Origin: Lysobacterales bacterium
Lineage (GTDB): Bacteria > Pseudomonadota > Gammaproteobacteria > Xanthomonadales > Rhodanobacteraceae
Direction: 5' to 3'
Length of the DNA stretch: 64,000 nucleotides
Assembly (NCBI GenBank): GCA_038205505.1
Contig: JBBRBU010000014.1
Coordinates: 8,067 to 72,066 of the forward strand
Shown: in pieces, positions 28,043 to 39,743 of the stretch
How positions within the stretch are numbered: position 1 is the first letter of the stretch
Layout of the letters: each line of letters opens with the position of its first letter
Notes under the pieces: model-generated
The model's database searches: none
Told to the model about the DNA's origin: nothing
The model's input: the letters and a program-made list of their open reading frames with translations, nothing else
Program-made: the position numbers and the translations under genes

Positions 28043-28258
28043 TGATGCGACGACGTGGCGCTCGTCGGAGGTGATGCCCGGTTCTTTTGCGATACGCCAC
28101 CCATGACTGTCGGCCATGGTGAAGGAGCTCAATGTTGAGTAACCTGCGTGCCGATTCGGATTACGCCGTTGCGGCGCATTTTTTCTTCGGTAGATTGGCG
28201 CCACTCCGCATCGGCTGGAGATGGCCCGGTTTGGTTTGGTTCCAGGGGAATCGTTCTG

Positions 28259-31090
28259 GTGAATCAATTGATCTTGCGCAAGCACTGGCTCTTGCGGAGC
28301 CTTGCTGCTGTCGTGATGGCAGCCAATGTCGCCGCGTTGGCTGATAACGACGACGAGGGCCGCGACGAAAGCTGGCAGATCGAGCAGCGCCAGCTTTGGT
28401 TCGTCGAATCGAGGGGGCTGCTCGAACACCCCGAAGCCTCACGTCTTCGCGCAGATGCGGTCGGGGAGCTGAAGCGCCAGCGTGAATGGCTGGATCCCGC
28501 GCGTGTCGCCAGCGGCGAAGTATGGGAGGAGCTCGGCCCCTCATCGATGAACATGGTCGATTGGGCCATGGGCCGCGTGGCCGGACGTCTCAACGCGATC
28601 GCGCCGCTACCGGGCAACGATGCAACGGTCTATGTCGGTGCGGCGGCAGGCGGCGTCTGGAAGACCACGAACGCCGGACTGAGCTGGGCACCGATCTTCG
28701 ACCAAGTTGGCACCCTGCCGATCGGCGCGATCACGATCGATGCGGCCACGCCGGACATGATCTGGGTGGGTACCGGTGACAAGAACAGCAGCTGTGGCGA
28801 CTACTTCGGCCAAGGTGTGTTCCTCAGTGAAGACGCCGGCGCGACCTGGAGCCCACGCAATGGCAGCGCGCCGACTGCAATGCCGTTGTCGATCGTCAAC
28901 GCAGTGGCAATCCAGCCCACCGACAGCAACGTGATTCTGGTTGGCGGTGCCGGCAGCTGCAGCAGCAGTGGAAATCTGTCAGGGGCCGGCGTCTGGCGCT
29001 CGGTCGACAGGGGCCTGAACTGGGCCAAGGTGCTCGGCAACAACGTCGAGGACATCGTGTTTGTCCCCGGAACATCGACGGTCTACGCGGGCCTGATCGG
29101 TCCTGGTGTGCAGAAATCCACTGACGGCGGTGCGACCTGGGCCGCGGCGAATAGCGGACTCAATATCACCGGCTCGCGACTGCGCCTCGCGATGGCGCCG
29201 AGCAACAGCAACATCCTTTACGTACTCGCGGGCTCAAAATTGTTCCGCAGCGATGATGGCGGCTCAAACTGGGTGCAGAAGAACGGCTCGGCTTGCGAGG
29301 GCCAGTGCAGTTACAACCAGGCCATCAGTGTGCATCCGACCAATTCGGACACCCTGCTTGTCGGCACCATCCGTGTGGCCCGCTCCATCAACGCCGGCGC
29401 CACGATCACGCCGCTGGTCAGCGGCTGGGGCAGCGCGCAGAAAGTGCATCAGGACACTCATGTCGTGCGCTATTCCCTCAGCAATCCGGATCGACTCTGG
29501 ATTGGCAGCGATGGCGGCATCTGGCGCAGTGACGACAGTGCGGCTACGTTCCGCAACATGAACGCGAATATCAATATCACCCAGTTCTATGACGTTGCAG
29601 TGGATCCGAACGACGCCAACATCGTCTTTGGTGGCGCCCAGGACAACAGCTCCTCGGGTCGTCGTACCAACCTGTTATGGAATCTGACCTACGCCAGTGG
29701 CGACGGTTTCATGAACGCGTTTGACCAGAACGATCCGAATATCGTTTTCCAGACCAGCTATCCGAATGGAAGCCGACCGAGCATCGTGCGCTCGGTGGTC
29801 GGCGGATCGCCGGGCAGCTTCAGTGGCGTTTCGAATACCGGAATAGCGTCAGGACCATTCGAGTGGGTCACGCCGCTGGCCACGGCGGGCAGCCAGCTAT
29901 TCGTCGCTTCAGACGTGCTCTACCGCCGAAGTACCGGCAGTGGCAGTTGGGCGGCGATCAGCGGTTCTCTCGGCAGCGCAGCCGTGGTCATCACGCCGCA
30001 GGCGCTCGGTACCCTGACGCCGACCTGCATTGGCACCAGGAACGGAAAGATCTGGGCAAGCCCCGATGCCGGTATCCCGTCGCCGGTTTTCATTGATGTC
30101 ACCGGCGACTATCCGGGCGGGCGCGTCTCCGATGTGGCGATGGATCCGGCGGACCCGCGAATTGTCTTTGTCACCCGTGGCGATTTTGGTGCATCGCGCC
30201 TGTATCGCTCGACGACCGGTGGCGGAACATGGGCGGCTGTTGGTGCAGGTTTGCCAAACGTGCCGGCAAATTCGGTGGCGATCGATCCGCTCGACAGTAC
30301 AAGAATCTTTGTCGCCACCGATGTCGGCATCTACGAAAGCACCGATAGCGGTGACAATTTTGTCGCGTTCTCTGCGGGTTTGCCGCTTGGCATTGTCGTC
30401 TCCGATCTGGAAATCGACGACTACCCGCATGTTCTCACCGCCGCCAGCTACAGTCGCGGCGCGTGGCGCGTCCTGCTCGCCGGCAGTGTCGGCAATGCGC
30501 CACCGACCGCTGATTTCAATGTGGTCGCCAATGGCCTCGACGCGACCTTCACCGATGCCTCGATCGATATTGACGGCAGCATTGTCGATCTCGTCTGGGA
30601 TTTCGGTGACGGCAGTGAAACGTCAATTGAGGCAAGTCCGATGCATGCCTATCCGGCGCCCGGGAACTACACGGCAAGCGTGACCGTTACTGACAACGGT
30701 GGCCTGAGTGCCAGCTACGGCAGGATCGTGCGCTTCTCGGCACCGCCAGTCGCGCTCGTCAACGGGGTTGCCATGACCAACCAGGTCGCGTCCCAGGGCG
30801 ACGACGTCTACTACACCCTGCAAGTGCCATCGAACGCAGTCAGCCTGCATTTCGAAACAAGCAGCCCGGTCGGCGGAGCCGATGCCGACCTGAAGGTCGA
30901 GTTCAATGGAGAAGTACTCTGCCAGTCGGCAGGCGCATCCTCATCCGAGCAATGCAATTTCCCGACGCCGGCAGCAGGCACCTACACGGCTATCGTCAAT
31001 GCCTATACGGCGCTGTCCAACTTCACGATACTCGGCAGCTTCACGGCACCGGCCGATGCGATCTTTGCCGATGGATTCGAAAATCCCTGA
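28259..31090 (+). CDS. Secreted BNR/Asp-box beta-propeller protein with PKD and PPC-like domains; C-terminal DAIFADGFE
   Basis: About 9 Asp-boxes (e.g. KSTDGGATW, RSDDGGSNW), PKD motif WDFGDG...HAY and a PPC-like tail. GTG start with SD agggg. Confidence 0.85.
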   Translation: MNQLILRKHWLLRSLAAVVMAANVAALADNDDEGRDESWQIEQRQLWFVESRGLLEHPEASRLRADAVGELKRQREWLDPARVASGEVWEELGPSSMNMVDWAMGRVAGRLNAIAPLPGNDATVYVGAAAGGVWKTTNAGLSWAPIFDQVGTLPIGAITIDAATPDMIWVGTGDKNSSCGDYFGQGVFLSEDAGATWSPRNGSAPTAMPLSIVNAVAIQPTDSNVILVGGAGSCSSSGNLSGAGVWRSVDRGLNWAKVLGNNVEDIVFVPGTSTVYAGLIGPGVQKSTDGGATWAAANSGLNITGSRLRLAMAPSNSNILYVLAGSKLFRSDDGGSNWVQKNGSACEGQCSYNQAISVHPTNSDTLLVGTIRVARSINAGATITPLVSGWGSAQKVHQDTHVVRYSLSNPDRLWIGSDGGIWRSDDSAATFRNMNANINITQFYDVAVDPNDANIVFGGAQDNSSSGRRTNLLWNLTYASGDGFMNAFDQNDPNIVFQTSYPNGSRPSIVRSVVGGSPGSFSGVSNTGIASGPFEWVTPLATAGSQLFVASDVLYRRSTGSGSWAAISGSLGSAAVVITPQALGTLTPTCIGTRNGKIWASPDAGIPSPVFIDVTGDYPGGRVSDVAMDPADPRIVFVTRGDFGASRLYRSTTGGGTWAAVGAGLPNVPANSVAIDPLDSTRIFVATDVGIYESTDSGDNFVAFSAGLPLGIVVSDLEIDDYPHVLTAASYSRGAWRVLLAGSVGNAPPTADFNVVANGLDATFTDASIDIDGSIVDLVWDFGDGSETSIEASPMHAYPAPGNYTASVTVTDNGGLSASYGRIVRFSAPPVALVNGVAMTNQVASQGDDVYYTLQVPSNAVSLHFETSSPVGGADADLKVEFNGEVLCQSAGASSSEQCNFPTPAAGTYTAIVNAYTALSNFTILGSFTAPADAIFADGFENP

Positions 31091-31174: not shown

Positions 31175-31220
31175 GCGTCGATGGCAGGGTTTTCCGCCGC
31201 ACTACGAATGACCCCATGAA
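31175..31220 (+). promoter_or_regulatory. Putative ECF-type promoter motif TGGCAGGG-N15-CGAATGAC (copy 1)
   Basis: Two blocks identical to those at 33839-33869, with the same 15-nt spacer length but a diverged spacer sequence. Confidence 0.55.
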
Positions 31221-31272
31221 GCGCCCTGATCCGCATGCTCGCGGTTCGGCGACCAACCGGGAGTCACTCAGC

Positions 31273-33522
31273 ATGAAAACGAATTGCAAGCTCGCGATAG
31301 CCGCGGCCTTGTCCGCATTGCTTTTCACGGGCGCGGCGAATGCCGCCACTTTCACCATCAGCACTACCGCAGATGACGCTTTTGCGCACGATACCAATCC
31401 CGGAAACGGCATTTGCATTGACGCGGGTGGTGCTTGTTCGCTGCGTGCCGCGATTGAAGAAGCCAACGCACGTGCCGGGATCGACACGATTCTTTTCTCC
31501 AATACATTTGTCAATGCGACCGTGACTCTGAGCGCGGCGACAAACGAGGGCCCGTTGCCGCCGATCACGGACAAGGTCAATATCCTCGGCATCTCGATCG
31601 ATGCCTACAACTCGAATGCCACGTTGCTGCGCGACGCACCACCGCAGTTTTTCATCAACGGCAGCAACCTGACAGGCAACGCCAGCGGGCTGATTTTCTC
31701 CGGTGCCGGTGCTTCCAGTAGCATCATTTCCGCGATCGGCATCATCGGCTTTCCGAGCCACGGCATCCTTGCGGCCTTTGGTGCCGACAATCTGATCATC
31801 GAGCGCAATTACATTGGCAATCGGGCGAATGGTTCTGCCGCCGGCAACGGTGGCCATGGCGTCTACGCGGCCAGCAGCGGCGGGCACCGCATCGGCAAGG
31901 TGCGCAACGGCGGCAACACCGCGTTCACCGGTCTCGGCAATGTGCTGTCGTCCAACGGCTTGTCCGGGGTCCGCCTCGAGTCCTCGAATGGCAACGACAT
32001 GCGCGGCAACCTGATCGGCATCTCGCCAACGGGTACCAGCGATCGCGGCAATGGCGCGTATGGCATCCAGATCAGTGGCACCGACAACGACATCGGCGAT
32101 TACCTCGCCGCCTCGAGTGCCGGCAACTACATTACAGGCAACAACCTCGGTGGCATTTTCTCGGTCGGCAACAGCAATCGTTTCTATGCCAACACCCTGG
32201 GCATTGGCGAAACCGGCGGCTTCATCACCAGTGAACTCGATGGCATCGTCATCATCGGCAACACCAATTTCATTGGCAACAGCGGCTTGGGCAGGAACAA
32301 GATCGTCGAGCATGCCGGTTCCGCAATCCGCCTCGGCGCAACGGCAGGCACGGCGGCCAACAGCAACTTCGTGCTCAACAACGAGATTGGCAGCTCCGGC
32401 TCGCAGTTTCCGATTCTGCTTTCCGGCAACGGAGCAGGTATCTACGTCGCCAAGGGCAATACCAATGCGATTCTCAACAACGTCGTCATCAACTCCACGG
32501 GCAGTTCCGCGCCGAGTCTGTTTGGCGACGGCATTGATGTGCGTGGCGACGGCAACACGATTTCCGGCAATCAACTCGGGTTCGTCACCTCGATATCCGG
32601 GCCTGTCGCCGAGCCGAACAATCAGGGAATCCATGTGGTCGGCAACAACAACACGATCGGCAGCAGCGACAGCCGCAACCAGGTCGGCGGCAACCACGGG
32701 ATTGGCATCGGAGCGTCGGGAAATGGCAATGCGGCCCGATTCAACTATGTAGGCGTAACCAGCGCTCTTGACGAGGTCGGCAATGGAACCGTCGGTCTGC
32801 AGATGAGCGATGGGTCCGGTATCGGCGTGGAAGGCAATATCGTCGGCAAGAACCTGGTCGGCGTGCTACTTGCCAATGTCATCGACAGCCCATTGATCAT
32901 CGGCAACTACATCGGCGTCAAACCCTCCGGCGGCAACATCGGCAACGCCGGCGACGGCCTGCGCATCATCAATTCCAGCAACAGTGACGTGCAGCAGAAT
33001 CGCATCTCATATAACGGCGGCAACGGCATCGTCACCAATGAAAATGTACTCGGACTGGCCTGGTTCCAGAATCGCATGCACAGCAACGGCGGCATCGGTA
33101 TCGACCTCGGCTTCGATGGCATCACGCCGAATGACGCTGGCGATGTCGATGTCGGACCCAACCGCCTGCAGAATTTCCCGATAATCCAGCAGGTCATTCT
33201 CGACAGCGTTGCCTTTCCACCCACACTGACGATCAGCTACCGCGTGGATTCGAATGCGGGCGCATCCGTCTACCCGCTGTTCGTCGATTTCTACTGGAGC
33301 GACATGGACGAACCCGCCCAGGGGCGCTTCTTCCTCGGTACCGATTTCAACTATTCAACACCGAATGCATTGCGCACGGTCACCTTGAATTTCGTCGATG
33401 GCGTGCCGGGTGGCTGGTTGACTGCAACCGCTCTGGATCAGGATCGCAATACCTCGGAGCTGGCCGCACGCTTCCAGTTCGGCAATCCGTTCGACAGGAT
33501 TTTCGCGAACGGATTCGAATAG
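31273..33522 (+). CDS. Secreted CSLREA-domain parallel beta-helix protein; C-terminal DRIFANGFE
   Basis: Signal peptide, CSLRAAIEEAN, Gly/Asn/Ile-rich beta-helix repeats and DGITPND...GPNRLQNFP. Confidence 0.85.
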   Translation: MKTNCKLAIAAALSALLFTGAANAATFTISTTADDAFAHDTNPGNGICIDAGGACSLRAAIEEANARAGIDTILFSNTFVNATVTLSAATNEGPLPPITDKVNILGISIDAYNSNATLLRDAPPQFFINGSNLTGNASGLIFSGAGASSSIISAIGIIGFPSHGILAAFGADNLIIERNYIGNRANGSAAGNGGHGVYAASSGGHRIGKVRNGGNTAFTGLGNVLSSNGLSGVRLESSNGNDMRGNLIGISPTGTSDRGNGAYGIQISGTDNDIGDYLAASSAGNYITGNNLGGIFSVGNSNRFYANTLGIGETGGFITSELDGIVIIGNTNFIGNSGLGRNKIVEHAGSAIRLGATAGTAANSNFVLNNEIGSSGSQFPILLSGNGAGIYVAKGNTNAILNNVVINSTGSSAPSLFGDGIDVRGDGNTISGNQLGFVTSISGPVAEPNNQGIHVVGNNNTIGSSDSRNQVGGNHGIGIGASGNGNAARFNYVGVTSALDEVGNGTVGLQMSDGSGIGVEGNIVGKNLVGVLLANVIDSPLIIGNYIGVKPSGGNIGNAGDGLRIINSSNSDVQQNRISYNGGNGIVTNENVLGLAWFQNRMHSNGGIGIDLGFDGITPNDAGDVDVGPNRLQNFPIIQQVILDSVAFPPTLTISYRVDSNAGASVYPLFVDFYWSDMDEPAQGRFFLGTDFNYSTPNALRTVTLNFVDGVPGGWLTATALDQDRNTSELAARFQFGNPFDRIFANGFE

Positions 33523-33831
33523 ATCGAGGGGCGGCGCATTCGATCAGCCTGCAAGCGTGCGCGGTAGAGGATTTGCAAGGACTTCGCGGGGCAAAGGCCT
33601 CGCTGACCCTGCCGCCCTGCGTGGATTCATTGGGCGGCGATTCCTGGCGACCCGAGACAGACTCGGGTCGTCCGCGCGGCTCTGCAGTGAAAGCCAAAAA
33701 CAAAGTCAGCGGGCCCTGCCGGCGCCGGCGCCGGGGTGACGCGGGGTGGAAATAAGAGCAGATCCCGGATCTCCGCATTCCGAAAATCGCTTTGACCGCC
33801 GTCCCGCGGCTGCATCCGGTGACAACCAGCA

Positions 33832-33877
33832 GTGTCAATGGCAGGGTTTCTCGCCTATTTCCGAATGACTCCCTGAA
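33832..33877 (+). promoter_or_regulatory. Putative ECF-type promoter motif TGGCAGGG-N15-CGAATGAC (copy 2)
   Basis: gtgtcaatggcagggtttctcgcctatttccgaatgactccctgaa versus gcgtcgatggcagggttttccgccgcactacgaatgaccccatgaa. Confidence 0.55.
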
Positions 33878-33928
33878 TACCCCGATCGGCCGCAGGCGCG
33901 GATCGACCTGACCCAAGGAGTTTTTCGG

Positions 33929-36169
33929 ATGAAAACCACGTTGCGCTTTCTGGTCGCCTCGTTTGGCCTGATGCTGGCCACGTCTGCCGCCGCATCGACC
34001 TTCACGGTCGATACCCCCATCGACGATACCGATGCCCATGATGCCAATCCGGGAGATGGCATTTGCCTCGATACGCTCAATGCCTGCCCGTTGCGCGCGG
34101 CGCTGGAGGAAGCCAATGCGCACGCGGGGCCCGACACGATTCTTTTCGCGAGCAACTGGGTCGACCAGACGCTGGTGGTCAGCGCTCTGGCCGGACCGCT
34201 GCCGGCGATCACCGACCGCGTGTCGATCCTCGGAACATCGATCTTGAGTTACAACGGTGGGGCCACGTTGCTGCGTGATGCACCGCCGATGGTCTTCATC
34301 GATGGCAGCCAGTTGTCGAATGCCGGCGACCATGGCCTGGTCCTCACGGGCGTAGGGGCGGGCGACAGTATCGTCTCCGCGATCGGGGTCGTCGGATTTC
34401 CTGGCGACGGCATCCGCACCACAACCGGCGTCTACAACCTGCGCATCGACCGCAACTACATCGGTGTTCGCGGCGATGGAACGCCGGCAGGTAACGGTGG
34501 CCATGGCGTGCATTCCTTCAACAGCGGCCAGAACCGGATCGGCAAGTCCGTCAACGGCGGCGGCACCGGCTACGTGAGCCTGGGCAATGTCATATCGGCC
34601 AATGTCCGCTCCGGTGTGCGTCTGGACGGCTCTTTCAACAATACACTTCACGGCAATCTGATCGGCATAGCACCGTCAGGCGATGCCGATATGGGCAACG
34701 GCGAATATGGCGTACACATTACCGGCGGAAACAACACCGTAGGCGACTTCATCGATGCCAACAGCGGCGGCAACTACATCGCGGCCAACGACCTCGGTGG
34801 AATCCAGGCTGACGGCGACGCCAATCGCATCTACGCCAACACCCTCGGGCGAGGAGAGACGGGCGGTTTCATTGACAGCGAATGGGCCGGCATTGTCGTG
34901 GTCGGCAATGCCAACACCATCGGCAGAGCGGGCCTGGGCCGCAACCGCGTTGTCCATCATCAGACTTCGGCGATCCGTGTCGGACTCCAGGGCGCGCCTT
35001 CCAGCAATGACAATGAGGTCGCCTACAACGAGCTCGGCAGTTCCGCAGCCGGTTCACCGGCAAATTTTTCCGGCAATGGCGGCGGCATCAATATCGCCAA
35101 CGGCAGCGAAAACGTGATCACCGGCAACCGTGTGATCAACGCGCTGGGCAACGCCGCAGTGGGTATTACCGGCGTCGGCGTCTTCGTGCGTGGCGACGCC
35201 AACACGATCACCGACAATCGGCTCGGATTCGTCGATTCCGTCGCCGGCCCCGTTGCCGAGCCCAACCAGCTCGGCCTGGTCGTGATCGGCAACGGCAACA
35301 TCATCGGCAGTGTCGGCAAGGGCAATCAGGTTGGCGGCAACAGCGGCTACGGTATCGGCGCATTCGGCGACAACAATTACGTGCATTTCAATTTCATCGG
35401 CGTCGATAGCGCGTACGCGCCGATCGGCAACGGCGGCGCCGGCCTCGTCTTGCAGGCGGGATCCGCCTTTTCGGTGCGCGAAAACGTCATCGGCGCCAAT
35501 AGCGGCGGCATGATACTCAACAGCGTCAGCAACAGCCCGCTGATTTTTGCGAACTGGATCGGAACGACGCCAAGTGGCGGCAATATCGGCAATGCGCTGG
35601 ACGGCATCCGCATCGAGGATTCCAACAACATCGATGTCCATTCGAACCGCATCGCGTTCAATGTCGGCAATGGCATCGCCACCGGCAGCAACGTCAGTGC
35701 GATCGCCTGGTTCCAGAACCGCATGTACGGCAATGGCGGCATCGGCATTGACCTCGGCGCAGACGGCATCACACCCAACGATCCCGGTGACTCTGACGAA
35801 GGTCCGAATCGTCTGCAGAATTTCCCGATCATCCAGAATGCCGTGCTCGACACCGTGGCCGTACCACCAACCCTGACCATCAGCTACCGGGTCGATTCGA
35901 ATGCCGGTACCGCTGGCTATCCCATGTTCGTCGACTTCTACTGGAGCGATGTCGATGAACTGGCCCAGGGAAGATTTTTCCTCGGCACCGATTTTGGCTA
36001 CAGCACACCGAATGCAATACGCACGGTCACCCTCGGTTTCGTCGACGGCGTGCCGGGTGGCTGGCTCACGGCAACGGCTTTGGAGCAGAACAGGAATACT
36101 TCGGAGCTGGCTGCAAGATTCCTGTTCGGCAATCCGTTCGGCAGGATATTTGCTGACGGATTTGAATAG
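33929..36169 (+). CDS. Paralogous secreted CSLREA-domain beta-helix protein; C-terminal GRIFADGFE
   Basis: CPLRAALEEAN. Collinear similarity to 31273-33522 over the full length, with a near-identical C-terminal ~110 aa. Confidence 0.85.
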   Translation: MKTTLRFLVASFGLMLATSAAASTFTVDTPIDDTDAHDANPGDGICLDTLNACPLRAALEEANAHAGPDTILFASNWVDQTLVVSALAGPLPAITDRVSILGTSILSYNGGATLLRDAPPMVFIDGSQLSNAGDHGLVLTGVGAGDSIVSAIGVVGFPGDGIRTTTGVYNLRIDRNYIGVRGDGTPAGNGGHGVHSFNSGQNRIGKSVNGGGTGYVSLGNVISANVRSGVRLDGSFNNTLHGNLIGIAPSGDADMGNGEYGVHITGGNNTVGDFIDANSGGNYIAANDLGGIQADGDANRIYANTLGRGETGGFIDSEWAGIVVVGNANTIGRAGLGRNRVVHHQTSAIRVGLQGAPSSNDNEVAYNELGSSAAGSPANFSGNGGGINIANGSENVITGNRVINALGNAAVGITGVGVFVRGDANTITDNRLGFVDSVAGPVAEPNQLGLVVIGNGNIIGSVGKGNQVGGNSGYGIGAFGDNNYVHFNFIGVDSAYAPIGNGGAGLVLQAGSAFSVRENVIGANSGGMILNSVSNSPLIFANWIGTTPSGGNIGNALDGIRIEDSNNIDVHSNRIAFNVGNGIATGSNVSAIAWFQNRMYGNGGIGIDLGADGITPNDPGDSDEGPNRLQNFPIIQNAVLDTVAVPPTLTISYRVDSNAGTAGYPMFVDFYWSDVDELAQGRFFLGTDFGYSTPNAIRTVTLGFVDGVPGGWLTATALEQNRNTSELAARFLFGNPFGRIFADGFE

Positions 36170-36266
36170 CCGGTGAGACCGCGCAATCGATCGGTCCGCG
36201 CTCCTGGATTGCGCCACTCGCCGGAACAGGTCATCTTCGAATACAGCGCAGCATTCGGGAGTCTCC

Positions 36267-39047
36267 ATGATGCACGATGAGGATGTCAGCCAATGGCAGA
36301 AGGCCGTGGCTTTGTATCGCGACGTGCTGGCCTTGTCGGAGAAAGATCGCAAGCGCCGGATCGACACCCTGGACGAGCCGGCCGACGTGATCGCGAAGCT
36401 CGAGCAGTTGCTGCGCGCCACGCAGGCCGGGGAGGCAACTCCGATTGAGGAAAAGGTCGGCCGCCTGATCGAGAGGCTGGGCCGCGAGACCGATGAGGGC
36501 GATCCATCGGATTTCGGCGCCGAGGCCATGCTCGGCCGCGTCATTGGCAACTGGACCGTAATTCGCGAGCTGGGCCGTGGTGGCATGGCGACGGTGTACC
36601 TGGTCAAGCGCAACGATGTCGCATTCGAGCAGTACGGTGCACTGAAACTGCTATCACTCTTGATGCTGGCCAGTGGCGGTGCCGCGCGCTTCGAGCGTGA
36701 GCAGCGACTCCTCGCACGCATGCACCACCCGAACATCGCAATGCTGCTGGATGGTGGCGTGGCCGCGGACGGAACTCCGTACCTGGTCACCGAACTCGTG
36801 GAAGGGCCCGACCTGCGCACGTATTGCGAGCGCGACGGGCTCGGTGTTCGCGACGTGATCAATCTTTTGCTGCAGGTTTGCGCCGCGGTCAGTCATGCGC
36901 ACGGCAACCTGATTCTGCATCGCGACATCAAGCCGTCGAATGTCATGGTGACCACCGACGGCCAGATCAAACTGGTCGATTTCGGCATTGGCAAGCTGGC
37001 CGAAGAAGCCGCCGAAGGCACCCAGACCAAGGTGTTCACGCCGAAGTACGCGGCCCCCGAGCAGCTCAGCGGCGCGGCTGTGACCACGGCGACTGACGTG
37101 TACGGACTCGGAGTTCTTGGCCGCAGCCTGCTTGGCACACCCATCCCGGGCCAGCGCGAACTGGACCGAATCTTCGACATGGCGACGCGCGAGGAAGCAT
37201 CGCGTCGATACGGCAGCGTGGAGAGCCTGGCGCGTGATCTGCGCAACTGGCTTGAGGATCGACCGATCGCCGCTGTCGCCGATTCAGCCCGCTATCGCGC
37301 ACGCAAGTATCTGAGCCGCCACCGCGGTGGCGTGGCCGCGCTTGTCGCCATCGTGTTGACCGCTGTTGCAGGCCTGGCGCTTGTCCTATGGCAGGCCCGA
37401 CAGACGCGCGAGGAACTGGCTGTATCCGAGCGTACGACGCAATTTCTCGTGCAACTGTTCGATCAGGCCGATCCTGTGGTTGCCAAGGGCTCGCCGACCA
37501 CGGCCCGCGATCTGCTCTCCCGAGCGCGCAACTCGCTGACGACCATCAACGACAACAAGGTTCGCAACCGGCTCGTCATCGCCATTGCCCAGGCGTACTA
37601 CGGCATGGCCGATTTCAAGGAGTCCGTGCAAATCCTGCAAAATGAATTGTCGGGGCCGATTGCCGACCAGTCGATCGATGTGCAGTTGCTGTTGGCCCGG
37701 TCAAGCTTTGAGAGCGGCCAGACTGCCGAGTCGATTGGCTTTCTTGAAGCCATGAATCCTCCGCCGGAGAGTGCCTACCGGGTGCATGGCCTGCTGGGAC
37801 GATATTTGAGTTCGGATGGGAAGTTCGAGCGTGCCGACAAGGAGCTGGCCACCGCGCGCGCAGCGTTGCCAGCCGCGGGCTCCGCTCCTGATGTGATCGG
37901 CATTCTCGCCGCGGTGGCACGCAACGATATTCGACAGGCCCGCTACGCCGAATCGCTGCTTGTACTCGAGCAGGCGCTTGCGCAGGCAAGAAACGCACAA
38001 TTGCCGTTGGAGGAAGGCAAGATCGAGCAGATGCATGCGCAAGTCGCCAACATCCAGGGGCGGCATGCCGATGCTCTGACACATACGCAGCGGGTACGCG
38101 AACTGTTCGCGCCGATCTACAGCGAGGATCACAGCGCGATGATCGAGCTCGACAACAAGGAGGGAGATATCCTGAAAGCCCTTGGCAGGCATGCGCTTGC
38201 CGTGGAAACGCTCGAACGCGCGGTCGGCAATGCACGCCGCCACATGGGTGACAGCGCGACAACGTCCAACGCGCTCAACTCCCTGAGCATGGCCTATGGC
38301 GCGGCGGGAAATCTCGAAGCGGCCATCGCCACGGGTCTGGAGGTCAATGAAATCCTGATTCGACTGGGCGATGCCGATCATCCGATCCGTGCAAACGTGC
38401 TTGGAAACGTGGCGGATTATCAGATCGATGTCGGAGATCTCGAAGGCGCCGAGACGAGCCTGGCCGTCGCCCGAAGTATCCTCGCCGATACCCTGCCTCC
38501 CAGTCACCCGGTTTCGATTCATGTGGAGTATCAGGTGCAACGCATTGCCATTCGGCGCGGAAACATCGAAGTCGCATTGAATCGACTCACCGAACTGGCA
38601 CCGATGGCACAAAAGGCGCCGGGACCTGGCAATGGCCTGACCCTGTCGATACTCAGCAGTGCCGGCCGACAGAACCTGCGCCTGGGACGGATCGACGAAG
38701 CAATAGGCTGGTTTGAGAAAGCCAGGAACGGGTCGCGCTCACTTGGCGAGGACTCCAGGCGCTATCTTGGCGCAAGCGCCGATCTGGCAGAGGCGACACT
38801 GGCAGCAGGAAGTGTCGACAAGGCGCAGAGCCTGCTGCAACCCGTGCTGAGGGCGCGCGACTCGGCGATTCCCGATTTCGAGGCCGGCCTGCGCTTGCGC
38901 GAATCGCAATTCGCCCGGCAGCGTGGCGACATCGTTGCACAAAAGGCACTGCTGGATTCTGCACTGGAGCTGATGCCCGAGGGCTCACCGCTACGAGCCG
39001 ATTGGGCACCCGAGATTGCGGCGCTTTCAAAATTTCAAGCTGACTGA
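36267..39047 (+). CDS. Hanks-type Ser/Thr kinase with a TM segment and C-terminal TPR-like repeats
   Basis: GRGGMATVY, ALKLL, HRDIKPSN, DFG, TPKYAAPEQ and DVYGLG. TM at ALVAIVLTAVAGLALVLW; helical repeats follow. Confidence 0.92.
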   Translation: MMHDEDVSQWQKAVALYRDVLALSEKDRKRRIDTLDEPADVIAKLEQLLRATQAGEATPIEEKVGRLIERLGRETDEGDPSDFGAEAMLGRVIGNWTVIRELGRGGMATVYLVKRNDVAFEQYGALKLLSLLMLASGGAARFEREQRLLARMHHPNIAMLLDGGVAADGTPYLVTELVEGPDLRTYCERDGLGVRDVINLLLQVCAAVSHAHGNLILHRDIKPSNVMVTTDGQIKLVDFGIGKLAEEAAEGTQTKVFTPKYAAPEQLSGAAVTTATDVYGLGVLGRSLLGTPIPGQRELDRIFDMATREEASRRYGSVESLARDLRNWLEDRPIAAVADSARYRARKYLSRHRGGVAALVAIVLTAVAGLALVLWQARQTREELAVSERTTQFLVQLFDQADPVVAKGSPTTARDLLSRARNSLTTINDNKVRNRLVIAIAQAYYGMADFKESVQILQNELSGPIADQSIDVQLLLARSSFESGQTAESIGFLEAMNPPPESAYRVHGLLGRYLSSDGKFERADKELATARAALPAAGSAPDVIGILAAVARNDIRQARYAESLLVLEQALAQARNAQLPLEEGKIEQMHAQVANIQGRHADALTHTQRVRELFAPIYSEDHSAMIELDNKEGDILKALGRHALAVETLERAVGNARRHMGDSATTSNALNSLSMAYGAAGNLEAAIATGLEVNEILIRLGDADHPIRANVLGNVADYQIDVGDLEGAETSLAVARSILADTLPPSHPVSIHVEYQVQRIAIRRGNIEVALNRLTELAPMAQKAPGPGNGLTLSILSSAGRQNLRLGRIDEAIGWFEKARNGSRSLGEDSRRYLGASADLAEATLAAGSVDKAQSLLQPVLRARDSAIPDFEAGLRLRESQFARQRGDIVAQKALLDSALELMPEGSPLRADWAPEIAALSKFQAD

Positions 39048-39086
39048 CGCGGCAACCTGATCAATCAAGGCGCTTCCGCAAACCTC

Positions 39087-39635
39087 TCAGGGCGCAAGGC
39101 GGGCGTCAAGAAACGCGCGGGCACAACTCCAGTCACGATGCAGGCTGCGCTCGGAACGACCGGTCAGTTGCGCAATCTCATGCATCGACATGCCGGCGAA
39201 ATAACGCAGGTTCACGAGTTCGAGCAGGCCTGGATCGATCTGTTCGAGCTCGTCCATCGCGGCATCGAGGGCAAGCAACTCGGTATTGGTTTCGGAACTG
39301 GCAACGTCGACGCGATCAAGCGTGACAAAGGCGGCGTCGCCACCGCGTTTCGCCGATGCTGATGCGCGCGCGGCATCGATCAGGATCTGGCGCATCGCCG
39401 CGGCGGCGCAGGCGAAGAAATGCTGACGACTGAGCAGATCGAGTTTCGCCGCGCCGACCAATTTCAGGTACAGCTCGTGGACCAGCGCAGTGGCGGTCAG
39501 GGTCGAGTTCGGCGCGCTGCTGATCCGACTACGCGCCAGGATCTTCAACTCGGCATGCAGGCGACCGAAGACTTCATCAAGCGAATGCTTGGTCCCCGTT
39601 GCCGCCTTGCCCAGCAGTTCGGTGATTTCTGACAC
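39087..39635 (-). CDS. ECF sigma factor of the kinase-associated type (TALVHE motif)
   Basis: ITELL, TLTATALVHELYLKL, AMRQILID...AKRGG and sigma4 LRYFAGMSMHEIA. GTG start with SD ggagg. Confidence 0.9.
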   Translation of the reverse strand: MSEITELLGKAATGTKHSLDEVFGRLHAELKILARSRISSAPNSTLTATALVHELYLKLVGAAKLDLLSRQHFFACAAAAMRQILIDAARASASAKRGGDAAFVTLDRVDVASSETNTELLALDAAMDELEQIDPGLLELVNLRYFAGMSMHEIAQLTGRSERSLHRDWSCARAFLDARLAP

Positions 39636-39743
39636 GCGCATCCTCCGGGCTGCAAAGCGGTGCACAAAGGCACGAACTAAAGCAGGTAGATGGTCAAATT
39701 GGGCCCCGTCCGGCCAGACTAACACCACACGCGTCCGCCTCAC

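Follow-up and report, generated by a model that had tools for sequence, protein, structure and literature searches.

A candidate promoter motif that follows one subclade of kinase-linked ECF43-like sigma factors and precedes two secreted beta-helix genes in a Lysobacterales genome

The stretch of DNA analysed here (the window, 64,000 nucleotides) is contig C14:8067-72066 of the 4.26-Mb assembly of the Lysobacterales genome under study, which we call G000. It carries a block in which two genes for secreted beta-helix proteins, bh1 and bh2, are followed by a gene for a membrane Ser/Thr kinase and, convergent with the latter, a gene for an ECF43-like sigma factor of the extracytoplasmic function (ECF) type. 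One and the same promoter-like motif stands ahead of bh1 and of bh2. From comparison with related genomes, we consider it likely that this locus works as a self-contained ECF43-type module for sensing and responding, in which the motif is read by the neighbouring sigma factor. A reading made earlier from the letters of this DNA only (the sequence-only reading) had put the motif forward as the promoter of this sigma. Genome comparison supports that assignment, in that the motif tracks one sigma subclade, recurs at conserved loci, and was matched 13 times around homologous genes as opposed to 0 times in a control.

A pattern scan of the window located exact copies of the motif, TGGCAGGG-N15-CGAATGAC, on the plus strand at 31182-31212 (P_bh1) and 33839-33869 (P_bh2), which is where the sequence-only reading had described paired boxes with an N15 spacer ahead of both beta-helix genes. 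No further exact copy exists anywhere in the assembly. When up to two mismatches were allowed, the window still contained just those two sites, with 0.07 expected, and two-mismatch matches across the genome lay nearly all within open reading frames (ORFs) and were treated as chance. Scored with a weight matrix derived from the later-found sites, P_bh1 and P_bh2 reached 46 and 45 bits, respectively, and the runner-up in the genome 17, leaving a gap of 29 bits. As a candidate ECF promoter, P_bh1 has the -35 box TGGCAG at 31182-31187, followed by a G and a T-tract, a 17-nt gap between the boxes, and the -10 box CGAAT at 31205-31209, and it is conserved in orthologs. Candidate promoter P_bh2 has the same boxes, with its CGAAT at 33862-33866. 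Transcription from P_bh1 is predicted to start approximately 6-9 nt past CGAAT, within CCCATGAA. The start codon of the signal peptide lies 60 nt (bh1) or 59 nt (bh2) beyond the end of the motif, or 63-64 nt beyond the end of CGAAT.

The products of bh1 and bh2 are paralogs with 60% amino acid identity, and the sequence-only reading had cautioned that the shared motif might partly reflect the gene duplication. The 4-fold degenerate sites of the two genes are 55% identical, where composition leads one to expect 37%, and over the 90 nt that precede the motif identity is only 30%, yet the motif boxes agree at 16 of 16 positions. The two spacers are each 15 nt long with 8 bases alike and 7 different, in agreement with the earlier description of a constant length and diverged letters. 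Outside the block GTCrATGGCAGGGTTTyyCGCC..T.CGAATGACyCCnTGAA, the upstream regions could not be aligned. The boxes also recur outside this genome, in four other species and three more genera, in some cases before dissimilar cargo genes. Because the neutral sites and flanks diverged while the boxes stayed identical, we rejected the idea that the motif is shared merely as a leftover of the duplication, which is exceedingly improbable, and the caveat was set aside.

In the four other Dokdonella species (G003, G016, G017 and G029), the order of motif, one beta-helix gene, kinase gene and convergent sigma gene is retained. The proteins are 72-75% identical to bh1, 67-81% identical for the kinase and 64-68% identical for the sigma. 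Their motifs follow TGGCAG(G/A)GTTTyyCG...CGAATGACyCC with variable spacers and unrelated upstream DNA, and G003 and G029 have a single motif copy per genome. A pattern search throughout the family returned one more near-perfect match, TGGCACGGTTTCGCGCGCGATTGCGAATGAC, in a different genus (G216). There, CGAAT ends 41 nt before the gene for a 597-aa secreted Pmp/beta-helix-like protein, and a sigma gene (50% identical) and a kinase gene come next on the same strand.

For a comparison across genera, the family's 20 closest sigma homologs were added to the set, which gave 25 neighbourhoods covering 464 kb. A kinase gene is adjacent to the sigma gene for 20 of the 20 added homologs, and in 25 of 25 homologous loci overall; the related sigma/kinase pairs of the three further genera show 45-54% identity. 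In the 464 kb, the pattern TGGCA-N18-CG[AT]AT was matched 13 times, as compared to 0 times in the reversed control and approximately 1.4 times expected from composition. All but one of the 13 matches are intergenic, and 10 of these 12 are positioned 37-63 nt (CGAAT to ATG) before a gene with a signal peptide. In four genomes (G216, G025, G004 and G094; loci L044, L051, L052 and L053), motif, cargo gene, sigma gene and kinase gene follow each other on one strand, and the predicted unit is a fully autoregulated operon. The beta-helix group has its sigma gene inverted and convergent, such that only the kinase gene can share a transcript with the cargo. The cargo proteins of the other genera have 540-654 aa with weak Chlam_PMP/Beta_helix repeats and end in ...DLGAVE..D.IF..GF(G/E); tblastn revealed no similarity between them and bh1 or bh2 at 1e-8.

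We examined how the motif is distributed over the sigma phylogeny. In a maximum-likelihood tree of 36 sigma factors, 13 of 13 motif-bearing loci fell within one clade of 19 members, and none of the 17 sigma factors outside this clade had the motif. Mapped on the tree, the motif label required 4 changes versus 10.8 after shuffling, and 0 of 500 shuffles clustered as well. The genome under study encodes around 10 PF07638 sigma factors, most of them beside kinases, and within this genome adjacency is the sole link between the motif and its sigma. The motif might accordingly be a genuine promoter that is read by another sigma, either one of the approximately nine ECF43-like paralogs or an unrelated ECF factor. 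We regard this as quite unlikely, as in four genera the motif adjoins the members of a single sigma subclade and it is missing near other paralogs, and at four loci the sigma gene is itself inside the operon behind the motif. The sequence-only reading had proposed a motif scan near other kinase-ECF pairs. The outcome was positive for the related pairs in three further genera and negative for nine other pairs of this genome, where no TGGCA-type site was found within 8 kb of the PF07638 sigma loci.

The layout of the motif also bears on which sigma could use it. Spacing in TGGCAs-N17-CGAAT is invariant over 14 sites, which consist of the hexamer, one base, a T-tract and a CG(A/T)A box 17 nt past the hexamer. 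Promoters of sigmaW and sigmaV have the form tGAAACnTTTt-N-CGTA, and their -35-proximal T-tract is a recognised element (PMC5758882). They have in common with the motif the plan of hexamer, one base, T-tract, spacer and CG(A/T)A -10 box; they differ in the -35 hexamer, which is TGAAAC in those promoters and TGGCA(G/C), without 'AAC', in the motif, and the gap between hexamer and CGAAT is 17 nt here. The putative promoter thus matches ECF promoters in its layout. A promoter consensus for ECF43 was not found in the literature searched. TGGCA(C/G)G also begins like the -24 box of a sigma-54 promoter, and rpoN is present in the genome. Nevertheless, a sigma-54 promoter with TGGCAC/G as its -24 box is very improbable. 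The obligatory GC 10 nt after GG never occurs: positions 14-15 are CG, CA or CC in all sites read off, and the nearest GC is at N9 in some of them and at N11 in others. Moreover, a conserved CGAAT at the would-be start is not a feature of sigma-54 promoters, and the block has no gene for an enhancer-binding protein. The sigma-54 pattern (GG-N10-GC, TGGCAC-N5-TTGC) was rejected on spacing.

A further alternative concerns RNA. In the Dokdonella loci, the segment GAATGACyCC, which runs from the -10 box onwards, is complementary to the Shine-Dalgarno (SD)/start region (GGGAGTCAT), and complementarity is found in the same places in L045-L048 and L044. At bh2, the arms on the plus strand are 33860-33875 (-10 box and discriminator) and 33914-33929 (SD and start codon), which form a 16-nt inverted repeat that is 81% complementary; bh1 has weaker equivalent arms at 31209-31215 and 31259-31266, also on the plus strand. 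In all six Dokdonella sequences, RNAalifold predicted pairing of columns 35-44 with 90-99, and the z-scores of the duplex against shuffled sequences ranged from -1.2 to -4.75. Predicted accessibility of the SD was 0.09 with the native upstream sequence, 0.30 with a shuffled extension and 0.35 when the transcript began 7 nt past CGAAT. In silico, native upstream DNA masked the SD more than shuffled DNA did at about half of 11 sites. These observations would fit a conserved block that is mainly an RNA element, such as a 5'-untranslated arm (GAATGACyCC) masking the SD in transcripts from further upstream, or else the operator of a DNA-binding regulator. We think this unlikely. The pairs of the helix are nearly all invariant, so that they show no compensatory changes, and TGGCA and CGAAT keep their fixed spacing where the complementarity excludes them (G177 and G171). 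In addition, the block has no dyad symmetry and no match in Rfam, its upstream contexts are unrelated among loci, and the motif follows the sigma subclade.

If the motif is instead an ECF promoter, the 5' arm lies outside the mRNA that starts there, and pairing could silence read-through transcripts alone. It is conceivable, though doubtful, that the promoter doubles as a translational insulator: read-through RNA would carry both arms and hide the ribosome-binding site (RBS), and RNA initiated by the ECF sigma would be without the 5' arm and translatable. Under such an arrangement, cargo would be made solely when the kinase-activated sigma fires.

Several observations weigh against assigning the motif to this sigma. 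Within 10 kb, the motif was not found in six rows of the motif clade, namely L054, L055, L056 (on a short contig), L060, L062 and the G000 paralog on contig C1, and a relaxed search returned nothing in the clade loci L054, L055, L056 and L062, nor in L061 outside the clade. The sigma gene of the locus has no motif copy of its own. An 'AAC' is absent from the -35 box, which is GGCA(G/C) and group-specific. By their IFxxGF(E/G) ends, the cargo proteins of the other genera may be very distant bh homologs, in which case the loci would not be fully independent. Finally, part of the conservation of GAATGACyCC may be at the RNA level.

The proteins encoded downstream were compared with what is known of kinase-activated ECF systems. 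The Hanks-type Ser/Thr kinase gene (36267..39047, plus strand) specifies 926 aa, with a 96-aa N-terminal extension, a kinase domain, one transmembrane (TM) helix at residues 356-377 and an extracytoplasmic TPR region of approximately 550 aa. It matches the profiles Pkinase (7e-37) and TPR_12, and its catalytic set is complete (P-loop GRGGMA103, K127, HRDIKPSN218, DFG238 and APE263). The ECF43-like sigma gene (39087..39641, minus strand; 184 aa from the ATG at 39641) is convergent with the kinase gene across a 39-nt gap. Its product matches PF07638 (1.5e-40; 139.5 bits, cut-off 21.1) and TIGR02999 (1.6e-51; 174.8 bits, cut-off 126). Region 2.2 of this sigma reads T49-A50-T51-A52-LVHE, with no acidic residue in the tetrad and no DAED, and 37 of 37 homologs have a Thr in third position of this tetrad. 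Thr51 (codon 39489-39491) is the candidate phospho-acceptor; it was matched to the acceptors of EcfK and EcfP by means of the published motif strings and not through a residue-by-residue alignment. No anti-sigma-like ORF was found in the block with the ORF list and a profile scan. The sequence-only reading had described a TM Ser/Thr kinase with TPR-like repeats and a convergent ECF sigma carrying TATALVHE with no anti-sigma gene, and each of these descriptions proved accurate. PF07638 membership, lack of DAED, a Thr at the acceptor place, an adjacent TM-TPR kinase and no anti-sigma are the sequence hallmarks by which the protein would be assigned to ECF43.

In the region 4.2 helix of the sigma factors (residues ~160-175; window ~39115-39165, minus strand), RSLHRDW(S/A)CA occurs with the -35 hexamer TGGCAG and RSVNRDWQRA with TGGCAC. 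Co-variation between protein and DNA is a possible explanation.

ECF43 proteins have in place of the acidic DAED, which contacts RNA polymerase, a tetrad with the consensus QTTA, or QATE with phospho-Thr51 in EcfK (PMC13147305, PMC8999054). In EcfP, as PMC8999054 summarizes, the tetrad is STTA, its second Thr is phosphorylated, and the protein is intrinsically inactive without DAED. EcfK/PknS of Xanthomonas citri (ECF43; PMC13147305, PMC6653060) belongs to the same bacterial order as the present host. PknS has an N-terminal extension, a kinase domain, one TM helix and a periplasmic TPR region (PMC13147305), an architecture that the kinase described here shares. The two sigma factors have their family in common, as well as Thr51 at the matching place of region 2.2 (QATE in EcfK, TATA here) and the lack of any anti-sigma; they differ in that EcfK retains the acidic E52 and the present sigma has no acidic residue in the tetrad. 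The output of EcfK/PknS is a type VI secretion system (T6SS), whereas here it would be two secreted beta-helix proteins. At the presumed ecfK/pknS locus (in G478, a Xanthomonas-like genome, found by the pattern QATELVHE), sigma and kinase are approximately 33% identical to those of the window, and no TGGCA-N18-CGAAT site is present. The locus in the window has no T6SS genes. Orthology with EcfK/PknS was rejected on the identity of ~33% and the lack of a T6SS context, and the sigma is, by this comparison, a cousin of EcfK and not an ortholog. With that identity and without a related motif at G478, the promoter proposed here gains neither support nor contradiction from the published EcfK experiments. 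For EcfP/PknT from Vibrio parahaemolyticus (ECF43; Iyer et al. 2020, on the account given in PMC8999054), the acceptor Thr is likewise third in the tetrad (STTA, compared to TATA here), and the kinase is encoded alongside a DAED-free sigma as in the present pair. Its output, according to PMC8999054, is a regulon for polymyxin resistance, and the organism is another one.

Homology with EcfP/PknT and EcfK/PknS suggests how the module would operate. The membrane kinase would sense an extracytoplasmic signal through its large TPR domain, autophosphorylate, and then phosphorylate Thr51 in region 2.2 of the neighbouring sigma. The phosphate would supply the charge that is missing from the acidic-free sigma, which would then bind the core enzyme, and the resulting holoenzyme would read TGGCAG-g-TTTy...(17-nt gap)...CGAAT and transcribe bh1 and bh2. 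Read-through past a terminator-free hairpin would probably provide positive feedback on the kinase and not on the sigma. This GC-rich hairpin (36170..36224, plus strand; core GCGCAAT...ATTGCGC, without a U-tract) is located downstream of bh2, ahead of the kinase gene. All five Dokdonella species have it, a conserved CAT(G/C)TT..A stretch comes next, and no intrinsic terminator was predicted in this interval. The hairpin may attenuate or stabilise the transcript, and the kinase gene is probably in part co-transcribed with bh2. The sequence-only reading had spoken of a regulon. What remains of this term is a set of two predicted transcription units, possibly extended to the kinase gene by read-through; the motif-less sigma gene falls outside it.

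The cargo genes specify proteins of similar size. The bh1 gene (31273..33522, plus strand) encodes a 749-aa secreted right-handed beta-helix protein with a signal peptide, a CSLREA-like N-terminus and the C-terminal sequence ...RIFANGFE, and its paralog bh2 (33929..36169, plus strand) encodes a 746-aa secreted beta-helix protein ending in ...RIFADGFE. The longest bh1 ORF begins at 31216, straight after the motif; the real start is the ATG at 31273 (MKTNCKLAIAAALSALLFTGAANA), which is preceded by a GGGAG RBS and opens a typical signal peptide. An annotation with the 31216 start would place the 5'-untranslated region and the RBS of bh1 inside the coding sequence. The earlier label of these genes as beta-helix genes holds, since bh2 scored above the Pfam cut-offs for Beta_helix and NosD, and the PDB matches of its AlphaFold model (mean pLDDT 64, core 70-95) were all right-handed parallel beta-helix proteins. 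These matches included PL6 lyases, tailspikes, AlgG/AlgE4 and the adhesin PfbA, with low TM-scores. The model supports the fold class of a right-handed parallel beta-helix for bh2, and at such TM-scores it backs no specific activity. Just upstream of bh1, 28148-31090 encodes a 980-aa secreted BNR/sortilin-PKD-PPC protein that has the C-terminal sequence IFADGFE and no motif ahead of its gene; the gene is kept at the same position in G029, with 79% identity. Throughout the genome under study, approximately 34 ORFs of at least 200 aa end in [ILVMF]F..GF[EG]. Seven of them are within ~5 kb of ECF43-like sigma/kinase pairs (on contigs C14, C8, C18 and C12), where about one would be expected by chance, and the cargo of the other genera ends likewise.

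PF07638 sigma factors are much expanded in the bacterial family, with ~10 in the genome under study and as many as 16 or more in relatives (a maximum of 16 candidates was scored for each genome), nearly all of them beside a Hanks kinase. A second set of boxes was found at one of these pairs. On contig C8 of the same genome (25879-33363), a gene for an ECF43-like sigma leads an operon that continues with a kinase gene and two paralogous cargo genes, and TGACAC-N17-CGTTACCC, with a -10 box of the C-G-T-T-A type, is present ahead of each cargo paralog. This pattern has four copies genome-wide, as compared to one in the reversed control; two are those before the cargo paralogs and the others are at C77 5009-5036 and C103 2426-2453. 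The putative C8 code follows the same hexamer-N17-CGwwA plan with other letters, as would be expected for insulated paralogs.

Kinase-activated ECF43 sigma factors that have been studied are still few, and the module described here would join the known class of ECF43 sigma factors with Hanks kinases. The scheme itself is known already; what this locus adds is a well-defined promoter candidate and a predicted output of two genes. It offers a compact, testable set made up of a single kinase, a single sigma in which Thr51 is defined, and a pair of near-identical promoters whose spacers differ, along with a consensus across genera, TGGCAsG-TTT...CGAAT, for one sigma subclade. With about ten pairs in one genome, at least two apparent promoter codes, and several pairs near IFxxGFE secreted proteins, the family would be a natural system for studying the number of parallel kinase/sigma channels that remain separate from each other and the nature of their exports.

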